Origin: a virus
Direction: 5' to 3' (one strand)
Virus record (IMG/VR): IMGVR_UViG_3300037488_003551
Coordinates: 32,001 to 96,000 of that record
DNA length: 64,000 nt
Notes under the pieces: generated by a model
Told to the model about the DNA's origin: nothing
Databases searched by the model: none
The model's input: only the letters and a program-made list of their open reading frames with translations
Shown here: piece after piece, positions 328 to 63,734 of the stretch
Position numbering within the stretch: the stretch's first letter is position 1
How the letters are laid out: the number at the start of each line of letters is the position of its first letter
Program-made: the position numbers and the translations under genes

Positions 328-3021
328 ATGCCTCTATCTAGACCGAACACTGTCGTTTATCAGGAATATGCGGACCTCTCCGTTGTTCCCGCTACCCCAT
401 TCTTGAACACCCTCATCGTTGGTCCTTGCTATCAGCTGCTGGACTACCTCGATGACAAGGCGGATTGCGCCGCAGGAGAATACGGTACCCTGCAAATGAA
501 TAACCCACGCACGTCCCCGACGGCTGCGGTGGTTATCGCCACTCCTCCTGAGCTAGAAGCAGGTGCCATTCTCGAAGATAACAGCGTGAAGATTTTCTTC
601 GATGAGGTGCAGGTCGCATTGAAAGAGGTCACGGGTACTCCTGGAGATGATGCTGGACTTTATTACATCAGCGATAATCTGTTTGCCACTGTGAATGCTG
701 ATGGCGTACACATCGGTAAACAGTATGCGCAAGCAGGCGATACGCTCATCTGTGAAACATCGGTTACTGCGGATTTCATCAAAACCATAAAAGAATTGGC
801 CTACACGTTTTATGGTCCGGTACTCGATTTCACAACGTGGGGAGTAGATACCGGCGACATTATTACGGTTGAGAATGATGCAGCTTCTCCTTCTCGCAAT
901 GGTACCTACACCGTAAAAAAGAAGTATATCGTCGGAGGTTCTGTCCTCGCTACAGCCATTGAAATCGAAAATGCAGCAGCCCTAGAAGGTGACGTAGCAA
1001 ATGCGGACATCACTATCCGCTCTTCGACGGGAACTCTGCGACACACCACCATAGGTGGAGCTCCTGTTTCTTTGGGTGATTGGTGCAATCTCCGCGTAAC
1101 AGAAGATTTCTCGGCTGGACATCCGGTCAGTTGTCTCTGGCGCATCGAGCGTCAACTCAACGATGTCGAACTTGCTTCTACGGATATCACGGTGAACAAC
1201 ACCACGAAGACCGTAACCGTTAAAGCTGGCGTGACAGCAATTGTGAGTACGACCATTGGAGCCAAGCCTGTTACGTTCGCTGAGATGTACATGGAGTACG
1301 CTGCGCTGCGGCAGGACCTCCAAAACGTGGCCGAGGTTTCGTCTTCTTCCGAGGCGATTGCTCTCCTTGGAAAATACGATGCACGTAATCCGCTCTGCGT
1401 AGGTGTGCATGTAGCTCTATATAACACCACGACGCCCATCAAGGTCTATGGTCTCGCCGCGGATACGTTGGCCGGGTACACGGATTTTGTGGAGCGCACC
1501 AGTCATCTCAGCGACATCTACGCGGTGGTCCCACTGACCTACGATACGAGCGTTATCGGTTATCTCAAGGACGCGTGGGAGCGTTACGCTGATGCAGACA
1601 TCGTTCTTCAAACAGGTATTAAGCAGAAATTTCGGACGACCATCGGCGCTGTGGACCTCGTCACACAGAGCGAAGTCATCTCCGCGACCGCAGGCTCGTC
1701 CACGCTGACGAAAGCGGGAACAACTCCGGCAGGAAATTACACGCTGACTCTTTCTGGTCTTTCAGGTCAAACAGCGGATTTCAGTGCTTCTGGCGTTCTT
1801 CCGGGAGACATTGTCAATGTTAAAATTGGTGGCGTAACTGCTGGACCATTTACGGTAGCGCATGTAAATACGGCACTCATTCTTGAAACAGAAGAAGCCC
1901 TCACAGGTTTAGGTATAGCGCGTGACGCAGCCGATACTTTGGATATTACAGACCCAACAGGTATTATCCATCGTTTTACGGCTTTGGTTTATTCGGTAGG
2001 TGTCAAGGGGTTTACTCTTGGTGCATCCGTTCTCGACGCCCTTTATCTCACCCTGAGCTCTTCGACCTCCACGTTCATCACGGACGGCGTGGTCCCGGGC
2101 GACCTGCTCCAGATTCCGACCGACCCCGAGTCCACTTCTTGGACGACCTACGACACCTGGGTCATCGCAACTGTCGATAGCGAGACGCGCGTCACGGTGG
2201 TGAACGGCGGGAACAACACGGCCGACCTACAAAACGAGCTCCCGCATCTCATCAAGCGCACCGCGGCGACTGACCGTGTGGTCTCTACTAGCACGGTCTA
2301 CTTCCGCATCAAGCGCAACATGACCAAGACCGAGCAGGTCAACTACATGCTTGCGGTGGCTCAGAGCTTGGACAGCAAGCGTGCTCTTCTCTGCTACCCC
2401 AACAGCGTGGACATCACCGACCTTATCGATGGTAGTCTGACACGAACGGGTACGGACCCCGAGGTCGCCGCGGCGCAGCCAGGCTACTATCTCGCCTGCC
2501 TCGTTGGCGGCCAGACGGCGAGCCAGCCTTCGCACCAGGGCTTCACGAACCTGGGCGGCAACGGCATCGACCGCATTTACAACTCGAGTGACTACTTCAG
2601 CGAGGAGCAGCTCACCAACCTGTCGAATGGCGGCGTGTACGTCTTCGTGCAGGATGCGCCGGCCGCGCTGCCCTACACCATCCACGAAGTGACGACCGAT
2701 GTTCTCTCCCTCGAGACCGGTGAATACATGCACGTGAAGAATTTGGACTATCTCTCGATGTCTTTCCTCGAGACGCTGCGTCCCTTCATTGGCAAGTGGA
2801 ACATCACACCGGATGCTATTCAGTTCATCACGCAAGCTTTGTATGCGACCATCAACACGCACAAAACTGCATACCGCGCGAGGATTGGAGCGCCGATGAT
2901 TGACGGGACGGTACGCACCGTCTTCCAAAATACGGATGTCTCAGAAGATCGCATCGAAGCGTACGTCGACGCTGACTTGCCAACGGTCCTTAACACCCTC
3001 GGCCTACACTTGGTGGCGTGA
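328..3021 (+). CDS. Contractile tail sheath protein (897 aa)
   Basis: N-terminal RPNTVVYQE resembles the sheath P-x-V-Y-x-x-E start. C-terminal region (HQGFTNL...LSNGGVYVFVQ...IGKWNIT...LPTVLNTLGLHLV) is sheath-like. Thr/Gly-rich beta insertions; followed by tube- and spike-like genes. Confidence 0.8.
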   Translation: MPLSRPNTVVYQEYADLSVVPATPFLNTLIVGPCYQLLDYLDDKADCAAGEYGTLQMNNPRTSPTAAVVIATPPELEAGAILEDNSVKIFFDEVQVALKEVTGTPGDDAGLYYISDNLFATVNADGVHIGKQYAQAGDTLICETSVTADFIKTIKELAYTFYGPVLDFTTWGVDTGDIITVENDAASPSRNGTYTVKKKYIVGGSVLATAIEIENAAALEGDVANADITIRSSTGTLRHTTIGGAPVSLGDWCNLRVTEDFSAGHPVSCLWRIERQLNDVELASTDITVNNTTKTVTVKAGVTAIVSTTIGAKPVTFAEMYMEYAALRQDLQNVAEVSSSSEAIALLGKYDARNPLCVGVHVALYNTTTPIKVYGLAADTLAGYTDFVERTSHLSDIYAVVPLTYDTSVIGYLKDAWERYADADIVLQTGIKQKFRTTIGAVDLVTQSEVISATAGSSTLTKAGTTPAGNYTLTLSGLSGQTADFSASGVLPGDIVNVKIGGVTAGPFTVAHVNTALILETEEALTGLGIARDAADTLDITDPTGIIHRFTALVYSVGVKGFTLGASVLDALYLTLSSSTSTFITDGVVPGDLLQIPTDPESTSWTTYDTWVIATVDSETRVTVVNGGNNTADLQNELPHLIKRTAATDRVVSTSTVYFRIKRNMTKTEQVNYMLAVAQSLDSKRALLCYPNSVDITDLIDGSLTRTGTDPEVAAAQPGYYLACLVGGQTASQPSHQGFTNLGGNGIDRIYNSSDYFSEEQLTNLSNGGVYVFVQDAPAALPYTIHEVTTDVLSLETGEYMHVKNLDYLSMSFLETLRPFIGKWNITPDAIQFITQALYATINTHKTAYRARIGAPMIDGTVRTVFQNTDVSEDRIEAYVDADLPTVLNTLGLHLVA

Positions 3022-3470
3022 TGCAAAACGAGTTTTACAAAGCGGGCTACAACGACGCGCTGGTGAAAATGGGAGGCTTTGGAAGCGCTATTGCCAAAGG
3101 CCTTCAGACTGCGGGCGGATGGTTAAAAGGTCTCGGAACAAAAGTGCCAGCGGGTCCTGCTCAGATGTCACTTCCTGGTATGGCCCCTGCCGCGGCAAAA
3201 CCGGGGTGGTTTGCGGGAAAAGCTCAAGGCGCAGCACAGGGCCTAGGCAATTCTCTCAACAATCTCGCAGCTGCTCCGGGACAAACCCTCTGGCAGGGCG
3301 CCGGCAACTTCGGAAAGAACATGCTCGGGATGGGTCAGGCGAATACAACAAGCGGCGTTTTGGGCCGCGGTGCCATGGGCGTTGGCCTAGTGGGTGGCGC
3401 TACGGGTGGTTTCGGAAATAGATCGCAACCGAGACCGGGACAGCTCCCCGGCCCGGGACAGATACAATAG
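3021..3470 (+). CDS. Gly/Ala-rich glycine-zipper protein with type-B leader (FYKAGYNDALVKMG); putative virion cargo
   Basis: ATG overlaps the sheath stop (TGATG). Leader matches those at 20960(-) and 21463(-). C-terminal GxxxG helix GAMGVGLVGGATGG. Confidence 0.7.
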   Translation: MQNEFYKAGYNDALVKMGGFGSAIAKGLQTAGGWLKGLGTKVPAGPAQMSLPGMAPAAAKPGWFAGKAQGAAQGLGNSLNNLAAAPGQTLWQGAGNFGKNMLGMGQANTTSGVLGRGAMGVGLVGGATGGFGNRSQPRPGQLPGPGQIQ

Positions 3471-3479
3471 GAGGCTCGG

Positions 3480-4241: not shown

Positions 4242-4277
4242 TTCCTTTTTCTTTTGCCCCCGTGCTATGCTTTTTGC

Positions 4278-5842: not shown

Positions 5843-6118
5843 ATGCGAAAAACAGCTGAAGATATTGCGCAGAAGGTGCTAGAAAAGAATGCACTATCTG
5901 TAGCACATGTTCGAAAGGTTCTTTTAAACGCTGACCCTAAAAGAATTCAAAATATGAGGTAGGATAGTCCGGTGATGCGTGTTGCGACAAAAGGTGGGAT
6001 AGGAGAAAGTGAGAGGTTCTTACAGGAATTAGAGCGGCGCCGTTTGGGTTTACCTCCGGTAGATGACTTGGCGGACATTGAAAGGTACGCACGGTCTATT
6101 AAATCTGCTCCGTGGTGA
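5843..6118 (+). pseudogene. Type-A leader gene (MRKTAEDIAQKVLEKNA...) interrupted by in-frame TAG at 5960-5962; not in the ORF track
   Basis: TATAATT 5819-5825, AGGAGG and ATG 5843. 39 codons, then TAG, then 51 more sense codons in the same frame to TGA 6116-6118. Confidence 0.6.
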
Positions 6119-6187
6119 ACTTAAGCAATCAGCCTATAATTCTCAAAAAGTGGGCGCTGACTGCCCCGCATTAAAGGAGTTTTTTCC

Positions 6188-7042: not shown

Positions 7043-7807
7043 ATGAAAAAGACAGCTCACCAAATTGCTAGTCACGTATTAGCAAAAGTTGCCGCTATTA
7101 CACCGGAAGAAATCGCAGCCGGATTGGCTGGCAATAAGATGCGCGATATCCCCCAAGAAGAGATTGACAGCCTAACGCAAGAGTACGGCGATAAGGCTTA
7201 TAAAGAACGCGCAAGCGCTCCTTGGTGGGGTGGTGGACTTGGTGGGGCTCTCGGTGGATTGGGAGGATTAGCGTTAAGCCAGGGTCGTCCTGCAGGTGGA
7301 CTCATTGGCTTAGGGATTGGCGGGGGACTGGGAGCTCTTCTCGGGCATGGAGTACGCACGGGTGCACGGTCTCAAGCGCGTGACCTGGGATCGACAGTCG
7401 GAGGAATTGCACAGTCAGGTCGTATTCCTTACGACTTTCCTGGACGCGTCCGAACAGATGACCTTATACCGTACGCTAAGGGTATTCAAGGAACTCCTGA
7501 GACCATGAATTTTCAGGACGAACAAGCCATCAGGGACCGGCTGACAAACCGGCTCATGCTTATGCGCGGAGCAGAAGGCGCAATTACTGGGGGTCTAACG
7601 AGCGCTCTGGCTAACCGAGATCGTGAAGACGCATCAGGGGATGCCGTACTCAGCGCCGCGCTTCAAGGTGGGATGGGAACATTGCGCGGACGCTCGGAAG
7701 CGCGTGAGATGGCGCGCAAAGTCCTAGACCTAAAATCTCGTGGGTATGGGACGCTGTCTGATCGTTACTACAACGACGCCCTTGACCCAGAAATCCTGGG
7801 CTATTAA
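7043..7807 (+). CDS. Type-A leader (MKKTAHQIASHVLAKVA) plus glycine-zipper module 'AAITPEEIA.GL'
   Basis: Leader motif and GGGLGGALGGLGG / GLGIGGGLGALLG zippers. Paralogous to the C-terminal third of 7832-10402. Confidence 0.8.
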   Translation: MKKTAHQIASHVLAKVAAITPEEIAAGLAGNKMRDIPQEEIDSLTQEYGDKAYKERASAPWWGGGLGGALGGLGGLALSQGRPAGGLIGLGIGGGLGALLGHGVRTGARSQARDLGSTVGGIAQSGRIPYDFPGRVRTDDLIPYAKGIQGTPETMNFQDEQAIRDRLTNRLMLMRGAEGAITGGLTSALANRDREDASGDAVLSAALQGGMGTLRGRSEAREMARKVLDLKSRGYGTLSDRYYNDALDPEILGY

Positions 7808-7831: not shown

Positions 7832-10402
7832 ATGAAAAAGTCAGCCCTTCAAATCGCAGATGCAGTAAGAGCCAAACCTGAAGAACCTAGCGCGTTACGG
7901 AGGGCTGCACCTTGGCTTACCGCGGCCGGGACTGGAGCTCTAGGGTATGGCCTTTTGCGCCGAAGGAGCTTCGCTCCTATTGGGACACAACTGCGGTCTC
8001 TCCAAGAAGCGGCAAAGAATAAGCCTTTTAGTATAGCGACTTCGGGTGGAACGCCTTGGGCACAAAAAATTCGCTCCATGATTATGGGTGCTCCTGTCCA
8101 TACGACCGGAGAAAAGGTGAAAGGAACGGTTCTTCATCACACACCAAACCCTAAAGGTGGGGGTGATATTAATATAAATGCGGGAAATATTACAGACGCT
8201 CTTCAAGACAAAGCTGTCTTTGATCGTGTTATGCGTGAAGGTGTTGGTGCGGGACCTGGAATGGCTTCTTCTCTCCCAAATACAATGCGTCTTGATGAAG
8301 CACTAAAACGCGTAGGAGGAGACCCAAAGCGCTTAAAAGAAATCTATCCAGATTTTATGTTAAAAGCCCGAAGCGAATCAATGGGAAGGGGTATTTTTAA
8401 ATCGTTAGATGACCCCGGCGTAAATGAAGCTATTCAAAATCCAAGTCAATTTATCTTCCAAGAGAAGATGCCCATAAAGAATGAGTTCCGCGTACATACT
8501 ATAGATAACGAGCCGTTTACGGCGACGCACCGTTTTATGCCCAATAAAACGTTACGTGGTTTATGGAATCGAGTGGCTGGTGGAGGAGGCGGAGCTTTCG
8601 TTCCTCTGGTGGGAAAGAGACGAAGAGCTCTCCATGATTTTATTAGGCAGAGCACGGCGCATCTAAAACCAGCGGACGGTAAAAGCCTCTCAGACGTAGG
8701 AGAGTCTATGCATGTTGCCTGGGACGTTGCGGAGCTTCCTGATGGCACGTTCAAGCTTATTGAAGCCAACCCTGTACCGGGTACTATGATGAACCCGGGT
8801 ATTGCACAAAAACTTCAAAAACAAATAACTGGAAGATGGTCTAGACCCGTTGCAGCTTTAGGAGGAACTGCTTTAGCAGGCACATCTGGAGTTGCCGCTA
8901 ATAAGATTTTAGGCGGTCCTTCAAACAATGTAGCGGAGACATCTCCTATGAAAAAAACAGCGGACCAAATCAGTTGGAGCGTTCTGTTAAAGGTCGCAGC
9001 CGGAGCGGAAGGTAATCCCGAAATATGGCGCAAAATGGTAGACCGTATCGCTAAAAGCAAAGGTATACCAAAACCTACTGATGCTCAATTCCAAGAGATG
9101 TTTCCTAAGGATTTTGCAACCTCGGGAAAAACATTAGAAGATGCCATACAAGGTTCTGCTTGGTTTAAGCAGGGCACTTCAAGTGGCATGGGAGCTCAAG
9201 GTAGCAATTGGAATCGGGGATCTAGCGGTGGCGCTTGGGGACCAGGAGCAGATGATGCAGTCGCTGCTACGGAAGCTGCGCGCCAAAGAGAGTTGATGGC
9301 TTTAAGTCTTGTGAGCGGCATGCATAATGTAATGGGTTTAGGCGCGGCTGGAAGTGGAATTGGTACGGCTGCTACTGGGATTCATAGCACAACACAGGCT
9401 AAAACTCCAGAGGAACGCGCAGCTGTTTTAGGCCTGAGTGGAGGACTCGCAGGTTATTCTGGAGGGTCTGCTTTCGATAATTTTAGAAAAGCAAAATTAT
9501 ATAAAGACCTTCAAAATGCTATGTCCAATCCTACTGGTCCGAATTATTCGCAACGAGTAACAGATATATCTAATAAAATTATGAGAAAGCCTAAAGCATT
9601 TTCTCCTCAGCGTATTGGCGGATTAGCAGGTGTTGGTCTGGGTCTAGGCGGAGCTGCACTTTGGAATTATTTAGCCAGAGATAAACCTATGAGTAAGGCA
9701 GCGGCTATTACACCAGAAGAAATAGCTACAGGTTTAAGCGGACGAGCTGCACGTCCAGAAATTACGCTAGCGGAAATCATGGAACTTCGTAACAAACTTC
9801 GCCAAGAAGAATATGCTAAGCGGAGAGGGACACCTATAAAGTGGGGTATAGGTGGTGGCTTATTAGGCGCTGCTATTGGCGCTCTTTCGAGTAGAAAAAA
9901 GGGCTTAGGTAAATTACCCAGAACTTTAATTGAGGCAGGATTAGGAGCCGGTTTAGGCGGCTTTTTAGGAGAAACAAGTCGCAGCTTGGACAGTGATGCG
10001 ATGCTAGACCGCGGAAATATTCTAGGAAGAATAGCTAGAACAGGAAACTTGAAGCTAGTAGCGGATTCAGAAAATGCAAAAGATTACGCTCCCTTCGCAA
10101 TTGGAAGTCAACCAGGCGCTAAACCCTTAACGGAAGAGGAGACACACGCTCTTCGTAATCAAGTGTTAAAACAACGAAGTTTAGGCGGCGCAGTTAGGGG
10201 TGCTCCTTTCGCAGCTCTATCCGGAATACTCGGCGCCGCTGCTAAAGCTCCTCCTGGGGCCATAGCAGAATCTATGGCTTTCCCGCTTTTAACTGGAACG
10301 TACCTCGGAGCAAATAGAGCAGTAGACCAATCAAATACGTTAGTAGATTTGCACAACAGGGGGTATGGCGACCTAGCACGCATCATCCAAAAAGATTGGT
10401 AG
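7832..10402 (+). CDS. Three-module cargo protein: leader + ATP-grasp (RimK-like) domain, leader + 'GNPEIWRKM' module, leader + 'AAITPEEIA' zipper module (856 aa)
   Basis: ATP-grasp motifs DKAVF, LPNT, FMLKARSESMGRGI, FIFQEKM, EFRVHTI, VAWDVA, LIEANPVPG. Internal leaders begin at ATG 8948 (MKKTADQISWSVLLKVA) and ATG 9689 (MSKAA). Confidence 0.8.
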   Translation: MKKSALQIADAVRAKPEEPSALRRAAPWLTAAGTGALGYGLLRRRSFAPIGTQLRSLQEAAKNKPFSIATSGGTPWAQKIRSMIMGAPVHTTGEKVKGTVLHHTPNPKGGGDININAGNITDALQDKAVFDRVMREGVGAGPGMASSLPNTMRLDEALKRVGGDPKRLKEIYPDFMLKARSESMGRGIFKSLDDPGVNEAIQNPSQFIFQEKMPIKNEFRVHTIDNEPFTATHRFMPNKTLRGLWNRVAGGGGGAFVPLVGKRRRALHDFIRQSTAHLKPADGKSLSDVGESMHVAWDVAELPDGTFKLIEANPVPGTMMNPGIAQKLQKQITGRWSRPVAALGGTALAGTSGVAANKILGGPSNNVAETSPMKKTADQISWSVLLKVAAGAEGNPEIWRKMVDRIAKSKGIPKPTDAQFQEMFPKDFATSGKTLEDAIQGSAWFKQGTSSGMGAQGSNWNRGSSGGAWGPGADDAVAATEAARQRELMALSLVSGMHNVMGLGAAGSGIGTAATGIHSTTQAKTPEERAAVLGLSGGLAGYSGGSAFDNFRKAKLYKDLQNAMSNPTGPNYSQRVTDISNKIMRKPKAFSPQRIGGLAGVGLGLGGAALWNYLARDKPMSKAAAITPEEIATGLSGRAARPEITLAEIMELRNKLRQEEYAKRRGTPIKWGIGGGLLGAAIGALSSRKKGLGKLPRTLIEAGLGAGLGGFLGETSRSLDSDAMLDRGNILGRIARTGNLKLVADSENAKDYAPFAIGSQPGAKPLTEEETHALRNQVLKQRSLGGAVRGAPFAALSGILGAAAKAPPGAIAESMAFPLLTGTYLGANRAVDQSNTLVDLHNRGYGDLARIIQKDW
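8948..9170 (+). repeat. Diverged duplicate of 10410-10630 (leader + GNPExWRKMVDRIAKSKG...EDAIQGSxWF)
   Basis: Near-identical peptide over about 73 aa; DNA differs mostly at synonymous positions. Confidence 0.85.
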
Positions 10403-10409: not shown

Positions 10410-11408
10410 ATGTACAAAACTGCCGAACAGATCAGTTGGAATATCCTACTAAAAGCGGCTGCGAGTGAAGGTGGTAACCCTGAACTGTGGCGCAAGATGG
10501 TAGACCGTATAGCCAAAAGTAAGGGAATGCCAGCGCCTACTGACGCCGAGTTTGCAGAGATGTTTCCTCCTGATTTCGCGACTTCCAGTAAAACAATGGA
10601 AGACGCCATCCAGGGGTCCAAGTGGTTTAACAAGGCAAATGCAGGTCCATCTGCGTCCTCTCCGAGTTCTAATCCGTACGCGGATTACAATCCACGTTCG
10701 AGTTCAAGTTCGAGACAATACTCGTCTCCATTTGATGACTTTTTTTCAAGGTATAACCAGCAGGCAAGACAAAATTCGAATTGGTGGGATAAGACGTGGG
10801 ACGCAGAGAGTCAAGCACGAGCCGAAGCACGTAAAGCTGAGCAGCAAGCGAGTGACGCGCAATGGGAAGAAAGAAGACAGCGGCAAACTCGCGAGTCCGC
10901 AGACCGGGAAAAAGCATACCAAGAAAAACAAAAAGGTTATAGCCGCAGTACCTCGGCATCGACCGAGTCAAATAAGTACTATGACCAAGCTCGCGGTATG
11001 AAGAACCGTGCCGCCGCATATACGGCAGGGCTCCCAACTGCATTGGGTATGAGCGGATTAGCCATTGGAGCTGCGACTGAGGACAAAGATAAACGTAATG
11101 TAATTATGGGAGGTACAGGCGCAGGCGCAGGGGCCTCTATGGGATATGGAAGTGTCCTCGAAGAGAACGCTCGGCGGTTTAGGAATGCTATAAAACCTAT
11201 TCCTTTTTCTGTTGATGAAGGCTTTCAAGTTATGAAGCCTTACAATAAAATGAAAGCTACTCCCCATACAGTTATGGGTGGACTTCTTGGATTAGGTTTG
11301 GGTCTGGGTGGGTCTCACTTGATACAAAAAGCCTTCTATGACCAAAAGAAGACCCCTATGCGAAAAGCCGCTTCTGAAATTGCGGCATCGATTCTTAGAA
11401 ATTATTGA
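10410..11408 (+). CDS. Type-A leader protein with 'GNPELWRKM' module, Ser/charged linker, glycine zippers and a terminal orphan leader (MRKAASEIAASILRNY)
   Basis: Paralogous to the middle module of 7832-10402. Confidence 0.8.
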   Translation: MYKTAEQISWNILLKAAASEGGNPELWRKMVDRIAKSKGMPAPTDAEFAEMFPPDFATSSKTMEDAIQGSKWFNKANAGPSASSPSSNPYADYNPRSSSSSRQYSSPFDDFFSRYNQQARQNSNWWDKTWDAESQARAEARKAEQQASDAQWEERRQRQTRESADREKAYQEKQKGYSRSTSASTESNKYYDQARGMKNRAAAYTAGLPTALGMSGLAIGAATEDKDKRNVIMGGTGAGAGASMGYGSVLEENARRFRNAIKPIPFSVDEGFQVMKPYNKMKATPHTVMGGLLGLGLGLGGSHLIQKAFYDQKKTPMRKAASEIAASILRNY

Positions 11409-12823
11409 GTCGTATCTCTCTGTAGAAGTCGCATTAATTGATTATTCAAATCTTTTTTGTTCTTCGACATATCTGCTAATACATCTTCTACTCCAATTGG
11501 GTCCTTTTTTGTTATTCTCTGCCAAAGGTTGGCTTGTGGATGCGTGACGTATTGCTGGACAAGAACGTTACGCTTGTCCTCAGGTAAATCTGTGTGTGAA
11601 CCATGCCGAATCGCACGTCCAATAACCTGGTCGAGTTTTTCTTCATTCCAGTGAGGCTCTAAAACTTGGACCAGCCGCGTCCCTTTTAAGTCCAGACCTT
11701 CGCCACCTGCGGATGAGAGGAGCAAGGCCCGCAATTTCCCAGCGTTGTAATCGTCGATGGCAGCCTGGCGCTCTCCTTTTGGTACTGACCCCGTAAAAAG
11801 TTTGCTAGGAATTCCCTGCGATTCAAGTTGCTGCTGGTATTCGGATAGGTTGTTTAGATAATTGGAATATACGATGGCTTTGGAAGTAGGGTCAGACTTA
11901 ATACGCTTAGCTAGTTCTTGAACCGCGTACATTGTTTTGGGAGAGGCTTCGCCACGAACATACTTATTAGTGGAACCTGATATCTGTCTAGCCTGCGATT
12001 CAAATTTATTAAACGCTGAAAGTTCTTTCCCAGCAGGCAAAGCGCCATGCTCCAACTTTTTACGCAGACTTCGTGGAAGTGTTCCCCATGCGGCAGCGTG
12101 TAATCGCGTTTGCAGATCCGACATAGGAACGCGTACACGCTCGTCCATACGCGTTGGGAAATCCCCACTCGTATTGTCTTGATAATCTACCCACTTTTGG
12201 AGGACGCCCTTGAGCTCATCCGTATTTTTCAATACAGGCTTCATAGGCTTTCCTCGAAGGCGGTACCACCAACTTGGATTTCTTGGGGGTTTACTGATAT
12301 ATTTTTCGTTGAAAGTAGCTCCCACAGGAAGAACAGATTTACCTGCTGCGATGTTGACAAGCGGAGCTATATCGGAAGGCCTGTTATATACAGGCGTTGC
12401 AGTCAAAAGCATCCGTTTAGCCGCGGGATATTGCGCGAGAAGTTTATTAAGACCTGTAGATGTCTCGCGAGCTTTATGCGCTTCGTCTACAACTAAAAGG
12501 TCAGAGGGGATTGTTTCACCTGATAGCGCATCTCTCTGCTGACTTCGTACCTGGATATTATTAGGACCTTTGAGATGCTTGGCAATTTCCTTTTGGTAGT
12601 TGGGAACCAAAGATGCGGGAGCTAAGACGGTCGTATTTCCACTTTGTCCCGCAGCTGCCGCGAGGGAACTTAACGTTTTTCCTGTGCCTAACCCGTGTGC
12701 TACAACCAGCCCCGGCTGTTTTTTAAGACGGTCTACTACGCGCTGTTGATGCGGGAGTAACTGCGTTAAAACTTCCGCTGCAGTTTTATTGAATATTCCA
12801 GAAGGAATGGTCTTCGGTTTCAT
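11402..12823 (-). CDS. SNF2-family (SF2) helicase/translocase (473 aa)
   Basis: Q-motif LLPHQQ, Walker A HGLGTGKT, DEAH, LLTATP, GGEGLDL, EPHWN, QVIGRAIRHG. Confidence 0.9.
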   Translation of the reverse strand: MKPKTIPSGIFNKTAAEVLTQLLPHQQRVVDRLKKQPGLVVAHGLGTGKTLSSLAAAAGQSGNTTVLAPASLVPNYQKEIAKHLKGPNNIQVRSQQRDALSGETIPSDLLVVDEAHKARETSTGLNKLLAQYPAAKRMLLTATPVYNRPSDIAPLVNIAAGKSVLPVGATFNEKYISKPPRNPSWWYRLRGKPMKPVLKNTDELKGVLQKWVDYQDNTSGDFPTRMDERVRVPMSDLQTRLHAAAWGTLPRSLRKKLEHGALPAGKELSAFNKFESQARQISGSTNKYVRGEASPKTMYAVQELAKRIKSDPTSKAIVYSNYLNNLSEYQQQLESQGIPSKLFTGSVPKGERQAAIDDYNAGKLRALLLSSAGGEGLDLKGTRLVQVLEPHWNEEKLDQVIGRAIRHGSHTDLPEDKRNVLVQQYVTHPQANLWQRITKKDPIGVEDVLADMSKNKKDLNNQLMRLLQRDTTQ

Positions 12824-18039: not shown

Positions 18040-18666
18040 ATGAGCGCGACAGGACTATTCAAAAGAGCCGTCTCAATATGGACCAAAGCCCCGGGTCTTC
18101 CTTTTACTGTTAGTGGAAATACAGTACCAGATGACCGACTACTCGGTATGTCCGAGTGGGCTCCCCGTGACATGATAGAGCGCATGGGTAAAGGAGTTCA
18201 TCGAGGTGAAGACGTCGATAAGTTAATCGAAGAAGAACGTGGAAGAGGACTCGGTAAAGCGGTTGGAGGCGGAGCTGCTCTTGGTGGACTAGGTGGAGGA
18301 GTCCTGGGACGCATTATATCAGGAAAAGCCGCGACCGACCCCATTGAGGATATTTTTGAAAAAGGCACAGGTGCTTCTTTACGAGGTCTTCGAAATCTAT
18401 CGCGTGTACCCGGAGCAGCAAAAGCTTTGACACTGGGTGGGGTAGGACTGGGGGCTCTCGCAGGAGGTATCGGTTGGGGTAGAGGCGCTAAAGACCGGGA
18501 GAGCACGGCTCGTGACGTAGCATCTGGTCTGCACACGGAGCAATTAACCGCGGGTAATGCTAGTCTTCAAAATCAACTAATGGCGCGACAACTTTTGAAC
18601 GCTAATCCTATGCCTTCTGCAACCGCATCTACACCTCTCGTAGCGCAGACAGGAAAATCGATATGA
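18040..18666 (+). CDS. Glycine-zipper protein with short leader ending FKRA
   Basis: TATAAT-N5-ATG; zippers GGGAALGGLGGGVLG and GGVGLGALAGGIGWG. Confidence 0.75.
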   Translation: MSATGLFKRAVSIWTKAPGLPFTVSGNTVPDDRLLGMSEWAPRDMIERMGKGVHRGEDVDKLIEEERGRGLGKAVGGGAALGGLGGGVLGRIISGKAATDPIEDIFEKGTGASLRGLRNLSRVPGAAKALTLGGVGLGALAGGIGWGRGAKDRESTARDVASGLHTEQLTAGNASLQNQLMARQLLNANPMPSATASTPLVAQTGKSI

Positions 18667-19010
18667 TGCGTGGCATACAAAAACTAGCGGAGCTTGACGG
18701 CAAAGCTATTCTCGGTGGTGGCGCTGCTGGACTCGGTGCATACGCGTTAGCAAATACGCTTACAAAAAGTACCGCGGAAGCTCAACGCATCGCTATGGAA
18801 AAGGCGATAGAGTCTTATGCTAGAACAAAAGCTACGCCGCTTGTTGCTGGCGCAATCACAGCTCTACTTGTAGGAGCATTCGTAGCTTCTAGGATGAAGA
18901 ACAAAGTACAACAACCAACGATGACTCCGCAGCAGATGATGTACCAGCGCCAAGGCTTTCTCCCAGGTGAAGCTGTTCCATTTCCATCTGTAAGTGCGAA
19001 GTACCGATGA
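18663..19010 (+). CDS. Two-TM glycine-zipper protein with short leader ending QKLA
   Basis: ATGA-coupled to the previous gene; GGGAAGLGAY. Confidence 0.75.
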   Translation: MMRGIQKLAELDGKAILGGGAAGLGAYALANTLTKSTAEAQRIAMEKAIESYARTKATPLVAGAITALLVGAFVASRMKNKVQQPTMTPQQMMYQRQGFLPGEAVPFPSVSAKYR

Positions 19011-19127
19011 CAACTCCACGACCCACCATCTATAGAATACCCTCGAAGAATCTCCCAAGGCGTCCTGCTGAAGAGAAGGATAAACGTCTCTGGGAAAAAA
19101 ATAAACAAAAGCGTGGTATAAAGTAGA

Positions 19128-19575
19128 GTCGCGATTCTCGTGTAGATGTTGAGCTCGCATGAGTTGGAGCTTGACCGCTGCAGCTACTGCAGTATTTTAG
19201 TCTAATAAGAAAGAAGAGCCATGCCTTTCGGTCGGAGCCGAAAGAGATGAGCTCATGAGCGTCACCGCTACGATTGGCGGTAGCGTCGACGTCCTAGTAC
19301 ACGAGGACCGCGACATTTTAATTAGGCCGCACTGCAGCGTTTTTTAAAAAGAACGCCAGCTGAAGATACTTCAGTACTAAAGGCAACAACAGTGGTTAGA
19401 GTCGTACACGAATCTTTTAGCTTCTTGCTCCTCGAAGTTTTCTATTTTGCGACAAAATAGAAAACGTTCTCCTCGCGGCGAAGTAAAAAGATTCTTGCCG
19501 AACTCTCAGGAGTGCGGTAGGGGAAGGCGTGCCGAGAGTCTCTTCGGAGGCTCTCAGTACGCCGACCTCTTTTTT
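19128..19575 (+). ncRNA. Candidate two-domain structured ncRNA (about 450 nt including terminator)
   Basis: No ORF. Domain 1 is closed by gtcgcg..ctcgtgta (19128-19144) / tacacgag..cgcgac (19298-19314). Domain 2 is closed by ccgcact (19327) / agtgcgg (19517) and has a 13-bp perfect hairpin at 19437-19465. GGTATAAAG lies upstream; UUCG terminator hairpin and T-run at 19519-19575. Confidence 0.7.
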
Positions 19576-19598
19576 TGCTCCTGAGTTATAATTGGAGG

Positions 19599-20402: not shown

Positions 20403-20960
20403 TCAGCCGAACAATCCGAGGGCTTCTTGGAGTTGGGGCTGTACCGACCGATTTTGGAAGAGGCTGTTTAGGATAGGGGTCTGCTGCTGAGCTTGGAGGA
20501 GTTGGTCCATTTGACGAAGTTGGGTCGCTCGCTCAGGGAAAGCTCCCGCGAATTGATTCTGCTGAACGATATTGACCGGAGTCTTAGGAGCAGCTTGAAG
20601 GCGTATGGCTGCAGGGTCATAACCTGGGAGATTCTTAGCTCGGGCTGCAGCCGGTACGCTTGCAGCTGGGACTTGTTCTGCTCTCGTTCTGAATGGAGCT
20701 TGCGGAACAACTGTTCTAGACTTTAATTCTTCCATGAATTGAAGTTGCGTAGGGGTAGGAGCACCGGGTTTTACCGTAGCACGTGCAAGCGGATTCAGTC
20801 CCGTATTTTGAACGGATGTCGCCGCGGAGCCTGGAGGAAGTGGCGTCTTCCGGGAGAAGAGTGTTTTAGCTGCGCGTGTAACTGAATCTAGGATGCCAGC
20901 TTCCTTCTGGAATCCTAGGTCTACTAGTGCTTGTGCGTACCCTACTTGCTGGAAGTTCAT
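20403..20960 (-). CDS. Type-B leader (MNFQQVGYAQALVDLGFQKEA) plus Pro/Gln/Ala-rich payload
   Basis: Leader nearly matches the adjacent gene; ATGA coupling. Confidence 0.75.
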   Translation of the reverse strand: MNFQQVGYAQALVDLGFQKEAGILDSVTRAAKTLFSRKTPLPPGSAATSVQNTGLNPLARATVKPGAPTPTQLQFMEELKSRTVVPQAPFRTRAEQVPAASVPAAARAKNLPGYDPAAIRLQAAPKTPVNIVQQNQFAGAFPERATQLRQMDQLLQAQQQTPILNSLFQNRSVQPQLQEALGLFG

Positions 20961-21463
20961 TGGTAACCCATTGGCATCTGTTGCTGGCCGTATTGCTGCA
21001 TGGGTTGGCTAGGAGGTGGAGCTCCCATACCCGTTACATACCCTAAGCCACCTGCTCCGGCACCAGCTAGACCCACACTCATGAGGGGATTTCGTCGGAT
21101 ACGGTTCAGCATCCCCCCGCCCGCTGCAGCTTGAGGTGGAGGCGCCGAGGCGGCAGGAGACGCGGGAGGAGGAGCTCCCGGGGGCGCAGCCGGAGCCGCT
21201 GTTTGTCCTGCAGGTGCTTTGGGCTTAACACCTGCGAAGGCGTCCTCTGCCCGTCCTGTTGCGTTGGCTCCAGGAGGTTTACGAGGAGTCCGACCAGCTG
21301 CGAACCTCTCGACATCGTCCATGGCCGTAACTCCTGGACCTGCTTTTGGAACCGCTTTCGGCGCTCGACTAAAAAGCTGCTTTAACCAACCAAAGCCTGC
21401 CGCTGTTTTCTCAAGCCCCAAATCTGACAGGGCTGAATGGTATCCAATTTCAATCAAATTCAT
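20957..21463 (-). CDS. Type-B leader (MNLIEIGYHSALSDLGLEKTA) plus Pro/Ala linker and glycine zipper (168 aa)
   Basis: TAGAATT at 21488-21482 and GGAGG SD place the start at 21463 rather than 21706. Confidence 0.75.
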   Translation of the reverse strand: MNLIEIGYHSALSDLGLEKTAAGFGWLKQLFSRAPKAVPKAGPGVTAMDDVERFAAGRTPRKPPGANATGRAEDAFAGVKPKAPAGQTAAPAAPPGAPPPASPAASAPPPQAAAGGGMLNRIRRNPLMSVGLAGAGAGGLGYVTGMGAPPPSQPMQQYGQQQMPMGYQ

Positions 21464-59275: not shown

Positions 59276-60325
59276 GTGTCCAAACCCTATCGTGAACGCG
59301 CAGAGCTTTTTGCCCAAAACCCTCAAGGGCGTATTTACGGCGGCTTTTATCCGGGGCAAGGCTTTGGGACGTTTGGTGGAGGGGTAGACTCTGGAGAAGA
59401 CCCACAGGAAGCCGCAGCACGTGAGTTTCAAGAGGAGTCGGGTTATCCCGTATCCAACGTGCGCCCAGCCCCTGTCGACCCCTACGTCGAGGATTGGAAG
59501 CCTCTATCGAAGAAGCCTGAGTACGCTAACGACCCCAAGTTCCAAGAACGTTTTAAGAAGTTCAAGGGTTCACGTACTCATTATTATTTAGGGGATATTG
59601 CTGGAAAGCGTAAATCTAAAGGTTCAAACGACTCGGCCTATCCTTTTGAGTCTGTCCGATTTCGCGCAGCACCAACTGTTATCTCCAAGCATGAGAAAGA
59701 TTTGCAGTCGGTTACTGACCCTATAGATGTCGCACGATTACAGCAGCGTTTGGCTGTGTTGCGAAGTCTTCAAGGGACTACAAAAGAAGCGGAGGTTTTA
59801 CCCGTGAGCGTTTTTTCAGCGGCAGGATATCAGGCTGCTTTTGAGAAGTTGGCGCTTCCTCGCTGGGAGCAGATGGCTAGGAAGTTCCCGGAGATATTGG
59901 AGGGCAAGGATCTCCTAAAGTATCGACTGCGCAGTTACTTACAGGCAAAGGATAAATGGAATACGTTATATCCTCGTACTCCGACTAGAGACGCACGTGC
60001 TATGTATGACAGGGATTTCTTTCCTAAAGACATACGTGACTTTAATAGGGGACTTAACTCTGACGACCTATTTAATCTGCGTGGGCGAAGCCAAATAGCT
60101 CCATTAAAGTATCCCTATCCTGAATTAAAAAATACACCTTTTCAGGAACGGGCATTAGAGGCGTATAAGAAGCTCCCACTCGAGGCGGGTGGTCTTACGC
60201 GGAAAGAGCGTGTACGGGAACTCTGGAAGCGGGATAAGCCTATTAGTTCTATAAGGGATAAAGCATTATACCAACCAGAAAGTGATTTTGTTCGCGCTAC
60301 TCGACCTATAATGTCCACGTTATAG
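59276..60325 (+). CDS. Nudix hydrolase fused through an internal type-B leader (AAGYQAAFEKLA) to a second module
   Basis: Nudix box GGVDSGEDPQEAAAREFQEESG. Confidence 0.85.
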   Translation: MSKPYRERAELFAQNPQGRIYGGFYPGQGFGTFGGGVDSGEDPQEAAAREFQEESGYPVSNVRPAPVDPYVEDWKPLSKKPEYANDPKFQERFKKFKGSRTHYYLGDIAGKRKSKGSNDSAYPFESVRFRAAPTVISKHEKDLQSVTDPIDVARLQQRLAVLRSLQGTTKEAEVLPVSVFSAAGYQAAFEKLALPRWEQMARKFPEILEGKDLLKYRLRSYLQAKDKWNTLYPRTPTRDARAMYDRDFFPKDIRDFNRGLNSDDLFNLRGRSQIAPLKYPYPELKNTPFQERALEAYKKLPLEAGGLTRKERVRELWKRDKPISSIRDKALYQPESDFVRATRPIMSTL

Positions 60326-60358
60326 GGCAATGTAAAATTAGTGCGGAGGTACGTAGAT

Positions 60359-61279
60359 ATGCCCTTCAAATCCAAATCTCAGCAGAGATTCATGTTCGCC
60401 TCCGAGGCTGAGGGCGAGCTTCCCAAAGGTACGGCTAAGCGCTGGGCGAATGAAACAGAGAAAAAGAAGGGCGGCATCGAAGCGCTGCCGGAGAAGGTGA
60501 AGCCTTCTAAGAAGACGGCAAGCGCTATTGCTGGGGTTATTTTGGAAAAGCGTGGGGATGCTGCTGGCCGTGATTACGCGGAAGAACCAGAAGAGCTTCT
60601 ACTTCAACGGCGTGCTGCAGCAAAGAATTTAATGTTATACTATTTAAATAATTCGAATTCTTTTCAGCAAAAAAAGGATGGAGTAACAGACATATATTCG
60701 CAGCAGCTACCAGAAGAGCTACATACACAGGTTCGAGAGGCTTTTAAGGGGTATAGACCCTTTCCACGTAAGGAGGCTAGTGTTCAAATGGCTAATCGTA
60801 TCGGAGCTTTGTCCAGTTTTGTGAAGAATGCAGCGAATCCTTTTTATGATGACGGCAGGCAATCGGAGCGTCTCGACCCCAAAACAGTAGGTCTTTTGAG
60901 CGCGTTACCGATTGATGTCCTAGGTCCCATAGCGTCAGGATTGGGCGCACCTAAGGGCAGAGGTGCAGCGGCCGTTGGTGGAAATATTGTCGGTCAACTA
61001 GGAGGCGCTGCATTAGGAGCAGGAGCAGGCGTAGGGTTGGGTTCTCTAGGTGCTCTCCTAGGAATTAAAGACCCAGAACTTCTCCAGGGTATATTAGGTG
61101 GCGCTGGTCTTCTTGCAGGAAAAGGTATCGGAGGTGGCTATGGTTATCATTTAGCCACTAAAGATGCGGTTAGAAAAGAGGCCGCTTGCGCTTCGAGCCC
61201 ATCCTCTTCTAAGCCCAAAAAAATGAAGAAATCTCCAAAAGAGATTGCGAATAAAGTTTGGACATCCAAAAAAAAATGA
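60359..61279 (+). CDS. Multi-module cargo protein: MPFKSKSQQR domain, internal type-A leader, glycine zippers, terminal leader-like tail
   Basis: TAAAATT at 60333 and GGAGG SD; KKTASAIAGVILEKRG, RKEA, VKNA, RKEA, MKKSPKEIANKV. Confidence 0.75.
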   Translation: MPFKSKSQQRFMFASEAEGELPKGTAKRWANETEKKKGGIEALPEKVKPSKKTASAIAGVILEKRGDAAGRDYAEEPEELLLQRRAAAKNLMLYYLNNSNSFQQKKDGVTDIYSQQLPEELHTQVREAFKGYRPFPRKEASVQMANRIGALSSFVKNAANPFYDDGRQSERLDPKTVGLLSALPIDVLGPIASGLGAPKGRGAAAVGGNIVGQLGGAALGAGAGVGLGSLGALLGIKDPELLQGILGGAGLLAGKGIGGGYGYHLATKDAVRKEAACASSPSSSKPKKMKKSPKEIANKVWTSKKK

Positions 61280-62223
61280 AAAATTCAATTGAAAAAATTG
61301 CTGCGCGTGTATTGGAAAAACAAGAGATAACTAAAGCTCTCCCAAGCGCGACTAAATACGATGAGTCTCGTACGAAATTACCCCTTGGCACGATGGCGGG
61401 TACAGTAGGTGCTGGTTTCTTAGGTAATTTGGCGGTTGCACGCCATATAATGCCCGACTGGCTTCCTCCTGGGGAGGATATGCTACCAGATATGGAATTT
61501 GATATGCCGGATGGTTCTAAATGGTCACCCCCAAAAAAGACATATCCGACAGAGATAGACCAAAAACATTTATATGATTCTTTAGATGAGTCTATGTGGT
61601 CTAAGCATGTAGGTGGCAAGCCCGTGCTACATCATAGAGATCCTCTATTCCAAGGAACGAGGGGTCCTTATTCCATGAATCTTAATGATTTACCTGAAGT
61701 GGTGCGTGACTCGATGCGTGATACTGCGAAATTTGATGTGGATAAACCTTATGTGTATGTTCCACGTACATCATCACCGGAGATATTAGCGCATGAACTC
61801 GGTCACAGTTTGGAGTCTAGGCCGTTGCACTATGCGCGTATGCTAGGCGGAATTACGATGTCAAAGCCCTGGGCTATTCCTGCAAATATTGCTTCTGTTC
61901 TTGCATATAGAGCGGACAAAAAACATCCAGGATTAAGTGATGCTACCGTATATGGGTTAGGCGGAGCAGGGGCTTTAGGATTGGGTGCAACCTTAGGCAA
62001 TGAATTTGGTGCTAGTCTTAAAGGGTATAAATTGATGAAGCAGGTAGGTTTGAAACCGCGAGTTGGAAAAGCTTTTATTCCTAATTTGTCATATCTCACA
62101 ATGGGAGCTTTAATGAACGGCATCCCGATGACATTAGCAGCTAAGAGATTCATAGACAATAGAAAGCGTGATTCTTTAGAGCGTGCAGCACAGGCTCCTA
62201 CTCCGGGACTATTGCGTAAGTAA
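61276..62223 (+). CDS. Type-A leader (MKNSIEKIAARVLEKQ) plus membrane-associated HExxH zinc metallopeptidase
   Basis: ILAHELGHS, then two TM/Gly helices, then EFGAS..G, resembling neutral zinc peptidase (Zn_peptidase_2-like) architecture. Confidence 0.75.
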   Translation: MKNSIEKIAARVLEKQEITKALPSATKYDESRTKLPLGTMAGTVGAGFLGNLAVARHIMPDWLPPGEDMLPDMEFDMPDGSKWSPPKKTYPTEIDQKHLYDSLDESMWSKHVGGKPVLHHRDPLFQGTRGPYSMNLNDLPEVVRDSMRDTAKFDVDKPYVYVPRTSSPEILAHELGHSLESRPLHYARMLGGITMSKPWAIPANIASVLAYRADKKHPGLSDATVYGLGGAGALGLGATLGNEFGASLKGYKLMKQVGLKPRVGKAFIPNLSYLTMGALMNGIPMTLAAKRFIDNRKRDSLERAAQAPTPGLLRK

Positions 62224-62243
62224 AAAAGAAAGGAGGCTTTATA

Positions 62244-63734
62244 GTGGACAATTCTATGCTCGACAAAGCCCTCGGCTTCATTTCGTCTGTGCAAGATGCG
62301 CGTAAAGAGGGCCGAGATGAGCTCATGCGAACTATTCTCCCTGAGGTGTTGCAGCCTGAGGAATTAAAACAGGCTGCTGCCCCTATGAAGGAGGAAGCCT
62401 CCAAGACGCTCCATGCGCCTAAGTACGACAGGCGTATGAAGTTCAACACTGCCCTCGAGCGAAGTCAGAACAAGGCGACAAGCGAGGAGCCAGTACGGGC
62501 TGAAGAAGACCCGGCGTGGTTGAAGGAGGCAGCGGAGAAGGTTGCTATTTCGGAAGGACTTGCTATCAGAGCTCTTACACGTGCGACGGAGGGTGCTACT
62601 GATGCGGCATCTGCTTTTAAAGCAATAAATAAATACCCGCGTATTAATTTACGAGCCCAAGGTGTAACGGACCCTACGATAAGGCGAGAAGCCTTACCAT
62701 ATTTTAAGGAGTATACTGAAGCCGCTTCGCAGGTTGCTAATCCAGCAGCACTTACACCAGAAATGTCTGAAAGTCTTTTTTCTCGTCTATTTTCGTCTCA
62801 AAATAGATTGGGAGAAATTCTTGGCAAGCAAGCTGGTGATCCAGATTTTGATGGCATCACGGGAAGAGAAGGCGTGGTCACAGTTGAGGATGAGCTCGAG
62901 CGCACGCCTCCGCTGCCTATCGAAGAGCCAATGGAATATGACGTGGCGAATAAGCCTGTAATGCAGAAGTTGGCTCTTGCTGACCCCCCCCCAGTAAATA
63001 AAGGAATTTTCGAAGTAGCTGAACCTACAGCATCAGAAAAAGCTCTACCTATCGTAGGTGGCCTAAGCGCGGGTATCCTCCCCCTGACTGGAGCTTTTTT
63101 TAATCCAAATCCTTCGCTGAAATCTTTAGGAGTCGCAGGATTGGCTAGCGCTGGATTCGGGTTGGGAACTTACGGCCTCTTGCGGCATAGACAGAATAAG
63201 CATCGAGAACAAGCTCAGAAATTCGTTGATCGCCTTAATGCTGTGGCACGTTCTCCCATGGAAGATTTTGCGAGAGCTGAAATTGAGAATGTAAATAAGA
63301 CCGCCGCTTATCCCGAGGATGAGTCTTTCACTCAGCGTCATCCCTGGGTTCTTCCTGCGGGCGTAGGCCTTCTTGGGGCGGCAGCGGGGGCAATTCCAGG
63401 AGGACTTTTAGGCGGAAGGCACGCAGTAAAATCTGTTACGAAGCGTTATAATAAACGCTTGGCGGACCTAGGTACTGAATTCTCAGATGCTACTAACATC
63501 TACGGAGGAGCGGCTGCAGGTAAAGCAACATCTAAAGCTAAACTAGATGAATTAGAGCGTGCTGCACGCGACGCGGAAAAGGCTTTCGCCAAAGCTACCG
63601 AAAACAAACCCGACCTCGGGTATCACAAAGCTTTAGGCCATGTCGGCGGCGGCACCCTCGGGGGCCTCACGGGCGGTTCCCTTGGCGTGCTCGGGGGCTT
63701 AGCTGCCAACAAGCCCCAGCCCTGGGAACAGTAG
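62244..63734 (+). CDS. Multi-module glycine-zipper cargo protein punctuated by KxA motifs (496 aa)
   Basis: LKQAA, LKEAAEKVA, GKQA, MQKLA and NKTAA precede distinct modules; two zipper pairs. Confidence 0.75.
   Translation: MDNSMLDKALGFISSVQDARKEGRDELMRTILPEVLQPEELKQAAAPMKEEASKTLHAPKYDRRMKFNTALERSQNKATSEEPVRAEEDPAWLKEAAEKVAISEGLAIRALTRATEGATDAASAFKAINKYPRINLRAQGVTDPTIRREALPYFKEYTEAASQVANPAALTPEMSESLFSRLFSSQNRLGEILGKQAGDPDFDGITGREGVVTVEDELERTPPLPIEEPMEYDVANKPVMQKLALADPPPVNKGIFEVAEPTASEKALPIVGGLSAGILPLTGAFFNPNPSLKSLGVAGLASAGFGLGTYGLLRHRQNKHREQAQKFVDRLNAVARSPMEDFARAEIENVNKTAAYPEDESFTQRHPWVLPAGVGLLGAAAGAIPGGLLGGRHAVKSVTKRYNKRLADLGTEFSDATNIYGGAAAGKATSKAKLDELERAARDAEKAFAKATENKPDLGYHKALGHVGGGTLGGLTGGSLGVLGGLAANKPQPWEQ

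Follow-up and report, generated by a model that had tools for sequence, protein, structure and literature searches.

A 64,000-nucleotide window of an uncultured phage genome, comprising bases 32001-96000 of the 172,892-bp record IMGVR_UViG_3300037488_003551, raises the question of why proteins that otherwise have little in common should carry the same short peptides. Two such peptides, leader A and leader B, recur at the starts, joints and ends of proteins encoded in this window, often next to a Lys-x-Ala (K-x-A) motif. The original prediction, made from the DNA alone, took them to be address tags with a K-x-A cut site, by which any domain could be packaged into the virion and released from a polyprotein. 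By combining leader profiles, motif statistics, structural comparison and comparison with relatives, we found that the leaders probably belong to a capsid-targeting and processing system resembling that of phage T4, with new tags and a Lys-x-Ala cut rule, where both the packaging and the cleavage are what we infer from sequence. Motif statistics, the portability of the tags and a gene split at an internal leader all speak for the predicted address tag, except that K-x-A is missing from the end of some leaders.

Leader A has the consensus M-K-K-T-A-x-Q-I-A-x-x-V-L-x-K-x-A. We found it wherever it had been predicted: at the N-terminus of ORFs 5843, 7043, 7832, 10410 and 61276 (ORFs are named by the window position of their start, with (-) for the reverse strand), internally at 8948 and at 60506 (within ORF 60359), and as C-terminal stubs at 11358 and 61223, which makes four strong copies, three degenerate copies and two stubs in the window. 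In leave-one-out profile tests, with the six-frame scores of the genome as background, the copies at 5843, 7043, 8948 and 10410 scored 19-23 bits, where the background does not exceed about 10 bits. When 20 leader-A copies were made into a profile and searched against 1.84 billion representative proteins (E <= 0.001), 31 matches were obtained, including one repeat-protein false positive (P0140) and a few proteins of this phage itself; 24 of the 31 begin at residue 1. The matching proteins are 39-775 residues long and several carry two or three copies, some of them C-terminal, with 59 K-x-A motifs within 34 leader copies. Among 21 leader-A copies from this phage and its relatives, K-[T/S/L]-A stands at residues 3-5 in 19 and K-x-A at residues 15-17 in 14. 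Judging from these copies, the terminal K-x-A is a rule for leader A across the clade, not for every copy in the window.

Leader B has the consensus G-Y-x-x-A-L, followed by L-G, and is represented in the window by three strong copies and a weak one. The strong copies start ORFs 3021, 20960(-) and 21463(-), as had been predicted, and scored 14-15 bits leave-one-out against a background of 7 bits or less, while the fourth predicted copy, internal to the NUDIX protein of ORF 59276, did not rise above background. Genome-wide, five of six copies reached 11-17 bits (background <= 7). Scanning the whole genome with the leader profiles placed leader B also on four proteins of the head operon, which lies directly upstream of the window and comprises split RNA polymerase genes, genes for small helical proteins, the head protease gene and a probable capsid gene. 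Copies outside the window are found at the N-terminus of a 165-residue head-operon protein, as a variant on its neighbour, and in the tail of a LigD-like enzyme whose gene sits between the split RNA polymerase genes (Pfam matches in relatives). Most leader-B copies end in K-x-A, and the internal and C-terminal ones are also preceded by a K-x-A just upstream. The 31 library matches with their varied cargo and the A and B copies in the genome thus place the same short tag on otherwise unrelated proteins. The leaders as copies of a segment of a scaffold-like protein (genome 24743) were also considered and rejected, with hidden Markov model scores of an insignificant 0.3-1.4 bits.

What, then, is the K-x-A motif at the edges of these leaders? 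We compared every residue pair with a one-residue gap with its within-protein expectation. In the 16 head-operon proteins K-x-A ranks first (69 seen versus 30.1 expected, z 7.1; the runner-up pair has z 3.0), compared with rank 246 in the rest of the proteome, and it again ranks first in relative L029, the protease of which is 53% identical (66 versus 21.8 expected, z 9.4). Apart from the head-operon proteins, a single protein, at genome 156126, shows enrichment. None of the x-Glu pairs stands out in these tests, and the Leu/Ile-x-Glu rule of T4 gp21 does not hold here. Of 103 orthologous comparisons, 94 (91%) retain both the K and the A, whereas control K-x-other pairs are retained in 69%. 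Neither K29 nor A31 of the probable capsid protein varies over 40 homologues at 59-90% identity, and the protease motifs at residues 37-39, 234-236, 260-267 and 678-680 are near-invariant down to 46% identity, with Ser in place of Ala at one protease site in relatives. In the protease model, the low-confidence stretches 1-38, 223-247 and 663-668 hold the K-x-A motifs at 37-39, 234-236 and 663-665. Ser or Ala follows K-x-A at 36 of the 69 head-operon sites; a cut would probably fall after the Ala of K-x-A, in most cases with Ser, Ala or Glu next. The motif behaves as a recognition site for the head protease would, and this would be the simplest reading of its enrichment, its conservation and the avoidance described below.

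The protease (693 residues; genome 22608-24689, equivalent to window -9392 to -7311; L005:7608-9689) matches the PHROGs head maturation protease family phrog_18299 (E 1e-6). The solved structure nearest to its protease domain is T4 gp21 (5jbl_A; Z 10.2, root-mean-square deviation 3.2 A over 132 residues), well above the next-ranked structures, and Foldseek gave 5jbl_A a probability of 0.90 (E 0.15). Herpesvirus proteases (varicella-zoster virus, VZV; pseudorabies virus, PRV; herpes simplex virus 1, HSV-1) reached Z 6-7. A phmmer search of the protease against PDB sequences returned no match, and profile searches returned a marginal capsid match only. Complex prediction with protease residues 36-300 and a 30-residue leader-A alignment scored 0.00, which amounts to no verdict and is used neither way.

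Several further features of these head genes were observed. The protease has a ~450-residue C-terminal extension with glycine-zipper segments and conserved K-x-A at its flanks, and in its protease domain Cys174, Cys179, Cys190 and His192 are invariant, with a spacing like that of a small zinc site. About one in eight of the protease homologues among the matches listed (P0010, P0016, P0049, P0054, P0068, P0078 and others) are 1,060-1,095 residues long and have intein/homing-endonuclease domains (PF14528, PF14890, PF13403) inside. A conserved 171-residue ORF without K-x-A (genome 26019-26534) immediately precedes the probable capsid gene and shares its frame, a single stop codon lying between them; a read-through joining the two is unlikely, their frames being different in L029. 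The protein at genome 156126-157145 (window 124126-125145), 339 residues long and with TAGAATT at -35, has the strongest K-x-A enrichment of all (13 versus 3.0 expected) and is probably another scaffold or core protein diced by the protease.

The tagged genes of the window, together with the proposed members that carry a bare K-x-A, are listed below; body counts are K-x-A motifs seen versus expected outside tags and joints.

3021..3470, + strand: 149-residue glycine-rich protein with leader B (about 3021-3095); start codon overlapping the stop codon of an 897-residue gene; orthologues in all close relatives.
5843..5962, + strand: leader-A ORF truncated to 39 codons by an in-frame TAG; occupies a variable cargo slot between a spike-like gene and a 278-279-residue gene.
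7043..7807, + strand: leader A (7043-7093, ends K-V-A; 23 bits leave-one-out) and a glycine-zipper protein; missing in G001; body 0 versus 0.7.
7832..10402, + strand: 856-residue three-module polyprotein, with leader A degenerate at 7832-7882 and internal at 8948-8998, and a bare K-A-A (9689-9703) as the joint between modules 2 and 3; four of its five K-x-A motifs at joints; bodies 1 versus 5.9.
10410..11408, + strand: leader A (10410-10460, ends K-A-A) and a low-complexity/glycine-zipper protein, with a C-terminal leader-A stub (11358-11405) conserved in G001 and P0121/P0122; body 0 versus 2.7.
11402..12823, - strand: SNF2-family helicase (Pfam SNF2-rel_dom and Helicase_C, phrog_62) with K-T-A at residues 13-15; absent from G001; body 0 versus 3.1.
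18040..18666, + strand: glycine-zipper protein with a short N-terminus that ends K-R-A (conserved in G001) and resembles that of the head-operon protein at genome 16657.
18663..19010, + strand: protein of 115 residues that has two hydrophobic segments and carries K-L-A at residues 7-9; a doubtful member.
20403..20960, - strand: leader B (about 20895-20960, ends K-E-A; 13.7 bits leave-one-out) and a proline/glutamine-rich protein; orthologue in G001; body 0 versus 0.9.
20957..21463, - strand: leader B (about 21398-21463, ends K-T-A; 14.4 bits leave-one-out) and an alanine/proline-rich protein with a glycine zipper; TAGAATT upstream; body 0 versus 1.2.
59276..60325, + strand: NUDIX hydrolase domain (Pfam NUDIX 1e-9), a weak leader-B-like segment (59783-59854) bracketed by K-E-A and K-L-A, and a C-terminal domain; body 0 versus 1.9.
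60359..61279, + strand: internal degenerate leader A (60506-60556), glycine zipper and weak C-terminal stub (61223-61276), with four further K-x-A.
61276..62223, + strand: degenerate leader A (61276-61326; K-I-A at residues 7-9, ends K-Q-E), H-E-L-G-H motif and glycine zipper; body 0 versus 1.9.
62244..63734, + strand: 496-residue protein with six K-x-A (4.6 expected, not enriched), glycine zippers and G-Y-x-x-A-L near the C-terminus; a possible multiply cut member.

The domains behind the leaders are varied, as had been claimed, but not all cargo is unrelated, because module 3 of 7832 has a paralogue in 7043 and module 2 has one in 10410. NUDIX and SNF2 assignments were confirmed by family matches; the ATP-grasp domain, probable for module 1 of 7832, is a lead from a protein atlas, and the H-E-x-x-H motif of 61276 is present but matches no family, homology search with this protein yielding two orthologues only and a viral-contig scan yielding no match. 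The N-terminus of the 60359 protein (60359-60450) carries a short motif of the K-S-K-x-Q-Q-R-F-M-F-A type, which presumably recalls small phage proteins of unknown function. The bare K-x-A motifs proposed for the SNF2 helicase, 18040, 18663 and 62244 are all present, but an N-terminal one is weak evidence for any single protein because 22 of 176 non-head proteins (and 4 of 68 in the early region) have one within their first 25 residues; these four are weakly supported as family members.

Outside the tags and joints, K-x-A is avoided. The bodies of the 13 claimed proteins hold 12 motifs versus 28.9 expected (P 3e-4), and with 60359 and 62244 left out, the remaining eleven proteins hold 2 versus 21.4; the seen/expected ratio in the rest of the proteome is 0.90. 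The same pattern is found in the 26 leader-A proteins from the global search, with 13 body motifs versus 34.8 expected (P 2e-5). A motif that is concentrated at joints and avoided elsewhere is what would be expected of selection from exposure to a K-x-A-specific protease. Flanking residues agree with this: by a scoring matrix built from the head-operon sites, sites in the tagged proteins score well above K-x-A elsewhere (P 7e-6), and the stray body sites, K-P-A in 7832 and K96 in 18040, have very low flank scores.

Avoidance also bears on an alternative that we consider unlikely, namely that the tagged proteins help to build the prohead core or an inner body and are not cargo for delivery, with helices of a scaffold type, and that K-x-A is indeed cut while the proteins are for the most part degraded or remain in the head, so that the leaders would not be a general address tag. 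The highest K-x-A contents are found in small, helical, scaffold-like proteins, many cargo regions are of low complexity, and glycine-zipper segments occur in the tagged proteins, in two proteins of the head operon and in the protease's C-terminal extension, all of which would suit such a role. However, the cargo bodies appear built to survive the protease because K-x-A is avoided there; some cargo is enzymatic (NUDIX, LigD-like, probable ATP-grasp); and the cargo behind the tags varies among strains and relatives, unlike core structural parts.

This variation is seen at the 5843 slot, where we compared window 5843-6190 with L002:15450-15900 and L022:15500-15990. The predicted leader is present in the window ORF, which is cut by a TAG at codon 40; L022 has an intact 106-residue gene there, G001 has nothing, and in the 96% identical strain L002 the same leader precedes another, unrelated cargo of 94 residues. 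After about five leader codons the DNA of L002 diverges from that of the window, and the two agree again before the next promoter-like motif. Both slot cassettes are flanked by CTATAATT-like motifs, which could act as recombination points. Read-through of the TAG by a phage suppressor tRNA was set aside, as an ARAGORN search of the whole 173-kb genome found no tRNA genes.

Genes are also fused and split at the tags. In L019, which has an extra 172-residue leader-A gene, module 1 and modules 2 and 3 of the 7832 protein are two overlapping genes, split exactly at the internal leader, and this split backs the predicted polyprotein. At the joint of modules 2 and 3, only the K-x-A is kept across relatives. 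We also considered this 856-residue protein as a tape measure, which was ruled out by its being absent or split in relatives. A homologue of the NUDIX protein (P0134, 51% identical) has a canonical leader A at the site of the B-like segment of 59276, both segments ending in E-K-x-A followed by L-P-[K/R]-W, and from this the two tag types appear to be interchangeable. The LigD-like enzyme is joined via K-T-A to its leader-B tail; in L029 the enzyme is absent and the tail is a free-standing 106-residue ORF. The shared N-termini could in principle be remnants of gene duplication or homology arms for recombination, with no role at the protein level, given that 7043 and 10410 are paralogous to modules of 7832 and that the strain-level swap begins inside leader codons and ends at a repeated promoter-like motif. 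We regard this as highly improbable: it is the peptide rather than the DNA that is conserved, across a clade with protease identity down to 46%, the leader persists through in-frame fusion, as a C-terminal stub and in two or three copies per protein, and at one site A is replaced by B.

The gene neighbourhood includes probable tail genes. At the window start, an 897-residue gene is followed by a 253-residue gene and a 520-residue spike-like gene, the product of which has a weak match to the gp5 C-terminal spike domain. The 897-residue protein is a probable sheath, a lead from its protein-atlas placement near tail sheath families. The predicted coupling of ORF 3021 to this gene was found, with an ATG/TGA overlap, the sheath identity itself being a lead only. 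The backbone order of 897-residue gene, leader-B gene, 253-residue gene, spike-like gene and 278-279-residue gene is kept in ten metagenome relatives, among which the tagged genes around it differ. TANAATT-type motifs lie at about -35 to -43 before several head genes and the 897-residue gene; the claim that most tagged genes follow this motif stood in part, as among them only 5843, 7832 (with a different spacing, -12) and 21463(-) do. Leaders that load the tail, in the tube lumen or the spike, in the manner of signals of extracellular contractile injection systems, with K-x-A unrelated to the head protease, would fit a leader-A cluster placed directly after the probable sheath, the 253-residue gene and the spike-like gene, and a leader-B gene coupled to the sheath gene. 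This explanation seems quite unlikely to us, since leader B is also carried by proteins of the head operon and by the LigD-like enzyme encoded between the RNA polymerase genes, the two leaders appear interchangeable, each is flanked by the head-operon motif, which the cargo bodies avoid, and a second tagged cluster (59-64 kb) lies far from the sheath gene.

A role in membranes was weighed on the properties of the leaders themselves. On inspection, the aligned leaders do not look like Sec or Tat signal peptides: each turn is interrupted by charged and polar residues, R-R is absent, and Lys takes the position at which signal peptidase requires a small residue. They might instead be membrane-targeting amphipathic helices of envelope or lysis proteins that are never packaged, a possibility to which we give very little weight. 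In its favour, the helices are amphipathic, hydrophobic glycine-zipper segments occur in most of their carriers, and 18040 and 18663 adjoin genes for a membrane protein and a signal-peptide protein; against this, the same tags occur on soluble nucleic-acid enzymes, they lack a hydrophobic core or twin-arginine motif, and the K-x-A bracket and its avoidance in bodies would be left unexplained. At window 18663-20398, the 115-residue protein, a 125-residue membrane protein and a 149-residue signal-peptide protein are encoded in a row, which may be a lysis cassette; this would weaken 18663 as a member of the tagged family, and its product could equally be holin-like.

Several observations weigh against a capsid-targeting and processing system. 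The claim that the leaders end in K-x-A stood for four of the seven leader-A copies in the window, the motif being missing from 7832 (K-P-E), 61276 (K-Q-E) and 60506 (K-R-G), and the leader-B protein 3021 has no terminal K-x-A, indeed no K-x-A at all; in more distant 3021 orthologues leader B ends K-L-A. The leader-A copies of 7832, 60506 and 61276 score only 5-8 bits leave-one-out, within background, of which that of 7832 is supported because its L019 orthologue has a near-canonical leader and that of 61276 because two orthologues keep the same variant. K-x-A enrichment divides by gene class, ranking first in the head-operon proteins and only 178th in the tagged proteins taken whole, and 60359 and 62244 show no avoidance. 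The body boundaries in the avoidance test were set after the tags were known. Identity of the capsid protein (genome 26547-27467, probable HK97 fold) comes from weak matches (E 0.012-0.018), and its AlphaFold model is poor (pLDDT 48.5). Finally, most tagged genes are located among tail genes (probable sheath, spike-like) and not in the head operon.

With these points taken into account, we still favour targeting to the capsid followed by processing, and propose the following sequence. Leaders A and B would be two interchangeable amphipathic helices of about 10-17 residues, bracketed by K-x-A and placed in one or more copies at the N-terminus, an internal joint or the C-terminus of a protein. 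Such a helix would dock the protein into the core of the assembling prohead, by analogy with T4 and SPN3US. On the strength of the motif statistics, the activated protease would then cut at K-x-A, removing the helix, separating fused modules and dicing scaffold-like proteins. The mature domains, free of internal K-x-A, would stay in the head and probably be ejected with the DNA, again by analogy with T4 and SPN3US. The released set would comprise a probable ATP-grasp protein, a NUDIX protein, a LigD-like primase-polymerase/phosphoesterase, the H-E-x-x-H protein and a large number of glycine-zipper proteins. Where a copy ends in K-x-E or K-x-G, it may dock and escape the cut, much as a T4 tag with Asp as its last residue targets but is not cut (PMC9026906).

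No DNA or protein match to this genome or its proteins was found in the phage record collection, and most tagged and head proteins have no match in Pfam, PHROGs or NCBIfam. The clade is large, with 458 homologues of the protease and 844 of the probable capsid protein found by search, many of them on 165-185-kb contigs, and we found no published description of it. A broader interpretation, which we put forward tentatively and at somewhat less than even chances, is that this undescribed clade of ~165-185-kb environmental phages has a flexible capsid-loading code, consisting of two interchangeable, removable helices usable between modules or at either protein end, a protease of gp21 fold shifted to Lys-x-Ala, with Ala as the last residue as for herpesvirus proteases, and a changeable payload recruited by fusion at the tag; the payload kit would include a multisubunit RNA polymerase, the LigD-like primase-polymerase, NUDIX, ATP-grasp and SNF2 proteins, and membrane-active glycine-zipper proteins. 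If true, the targeting and processing logic of T4 would have a second, sequence-independent case in a widespread uncultured clade, and the packaged and probably injected proteome could be read from sequence as the tagged proteins with K-x-A-avoiding bodies. The system bears on the evolution of specificity within the gp21/assemblin fold, would illustrate how phages gain new injected proteins via cassette swaps and gene fusion at a tag, and offers tags that are candidates for loading foreign proteins into phage capsids.

Among known systems, T4 is the closest. Its capsid-targeting sequence is carried by the internal proteins IPI-III (and Alt) and is removed by the prohead protease gp21 (PMC9026906, citing Mullaney and Black 1996). 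Both systems have a short N-terminal tag on otherwise unrelated, fast-evolving proteins, a tag that in T4 ends in the cleavage motif of the head protease and here, in most leader-A copies of the clade, in the putative one, and a protease of gp21 fold (Z 10.2). They differ in that the tag here is of unrelated sequence and about 17 rather than 10 residues long, that the cut rule would be Lys-x-Ala instead of Leu/Ile-x-Glu, that there are two interchangeable tag types, which also occur internally or C-terminally, in two or three copies and with the motif on both sides, and that the cargo includes multi-module polyproteins and the protease has a ~450-residue C-terminal extension; targeting is proven in T4 and proposed here. 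Leader A and the T4 10-residue tag presumably share a start in M-K with I-A a few residues on.

The phiKZ gp175, 201phi2-1 and SPN3US gp245 group removes propeptides from head and ejection proteins (PMC10052503, PMC5694885), as documented for SPN3US gp245 (PMC10052503). As may be the case here, a T4-type protease in these phages acts at a three-residue motif on a large number of head and ejection proteins, propeptides with several motif copies are diced, and the protease trims its own C-terminus; genes for a virion-packaged RNA polymerase are likewise part of the set-up. In contrast, their cut is after Glu (Ala-x-Glu in SPN3US), and most propeptides are long (111-254 residues) and protein-specific instead of a shared portable tag.

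Herpesvirus assemblin cuts after Ala and before Ser, which would match the preference for Ser or Ala after K-x-A here; the last residue of the proposed rule is reminiscent of assemblin, although gp21 is the nearest fold. Its protease fold is related to that of the phage protease (Z 6-7), and in both cases a docking element adjoins the cleavage site that frees it, or would free it. The herpesvirus assemblin and scaffold system (PMC4498786) is eukaryotic, however, with one scaffold protein and no tag shared by unrelated proteins, and Lys two residues before Ala is not a general assemblin rule; a human cytomegalovirus (HCMV) protease substrate in use contains Asn-Ala-Ser (PMC13486704).

Encapsulin cargo-loading peptides are also short and portable, located at either end of unrelated enzymes, which they direct into an HK97-fold shell, but they are not removed by a protease and their sequences are unrelated. 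Extracellular contractile injection systems of the PVC type have payload genes with shared N-terminal leaders beside sheath, tube and spike genes, whereas those leaders are about 50 residues long, disordered, loaded into the tube lumen and without a link to a head protease, and the tags here occur on head-operon proteins as well. Compared with T4 and phiKZ-type systems, the new features are the tag sequence, the presence of two types of tag, where and in how many copies they occur, and the proposed Lys-x-Ala rule.

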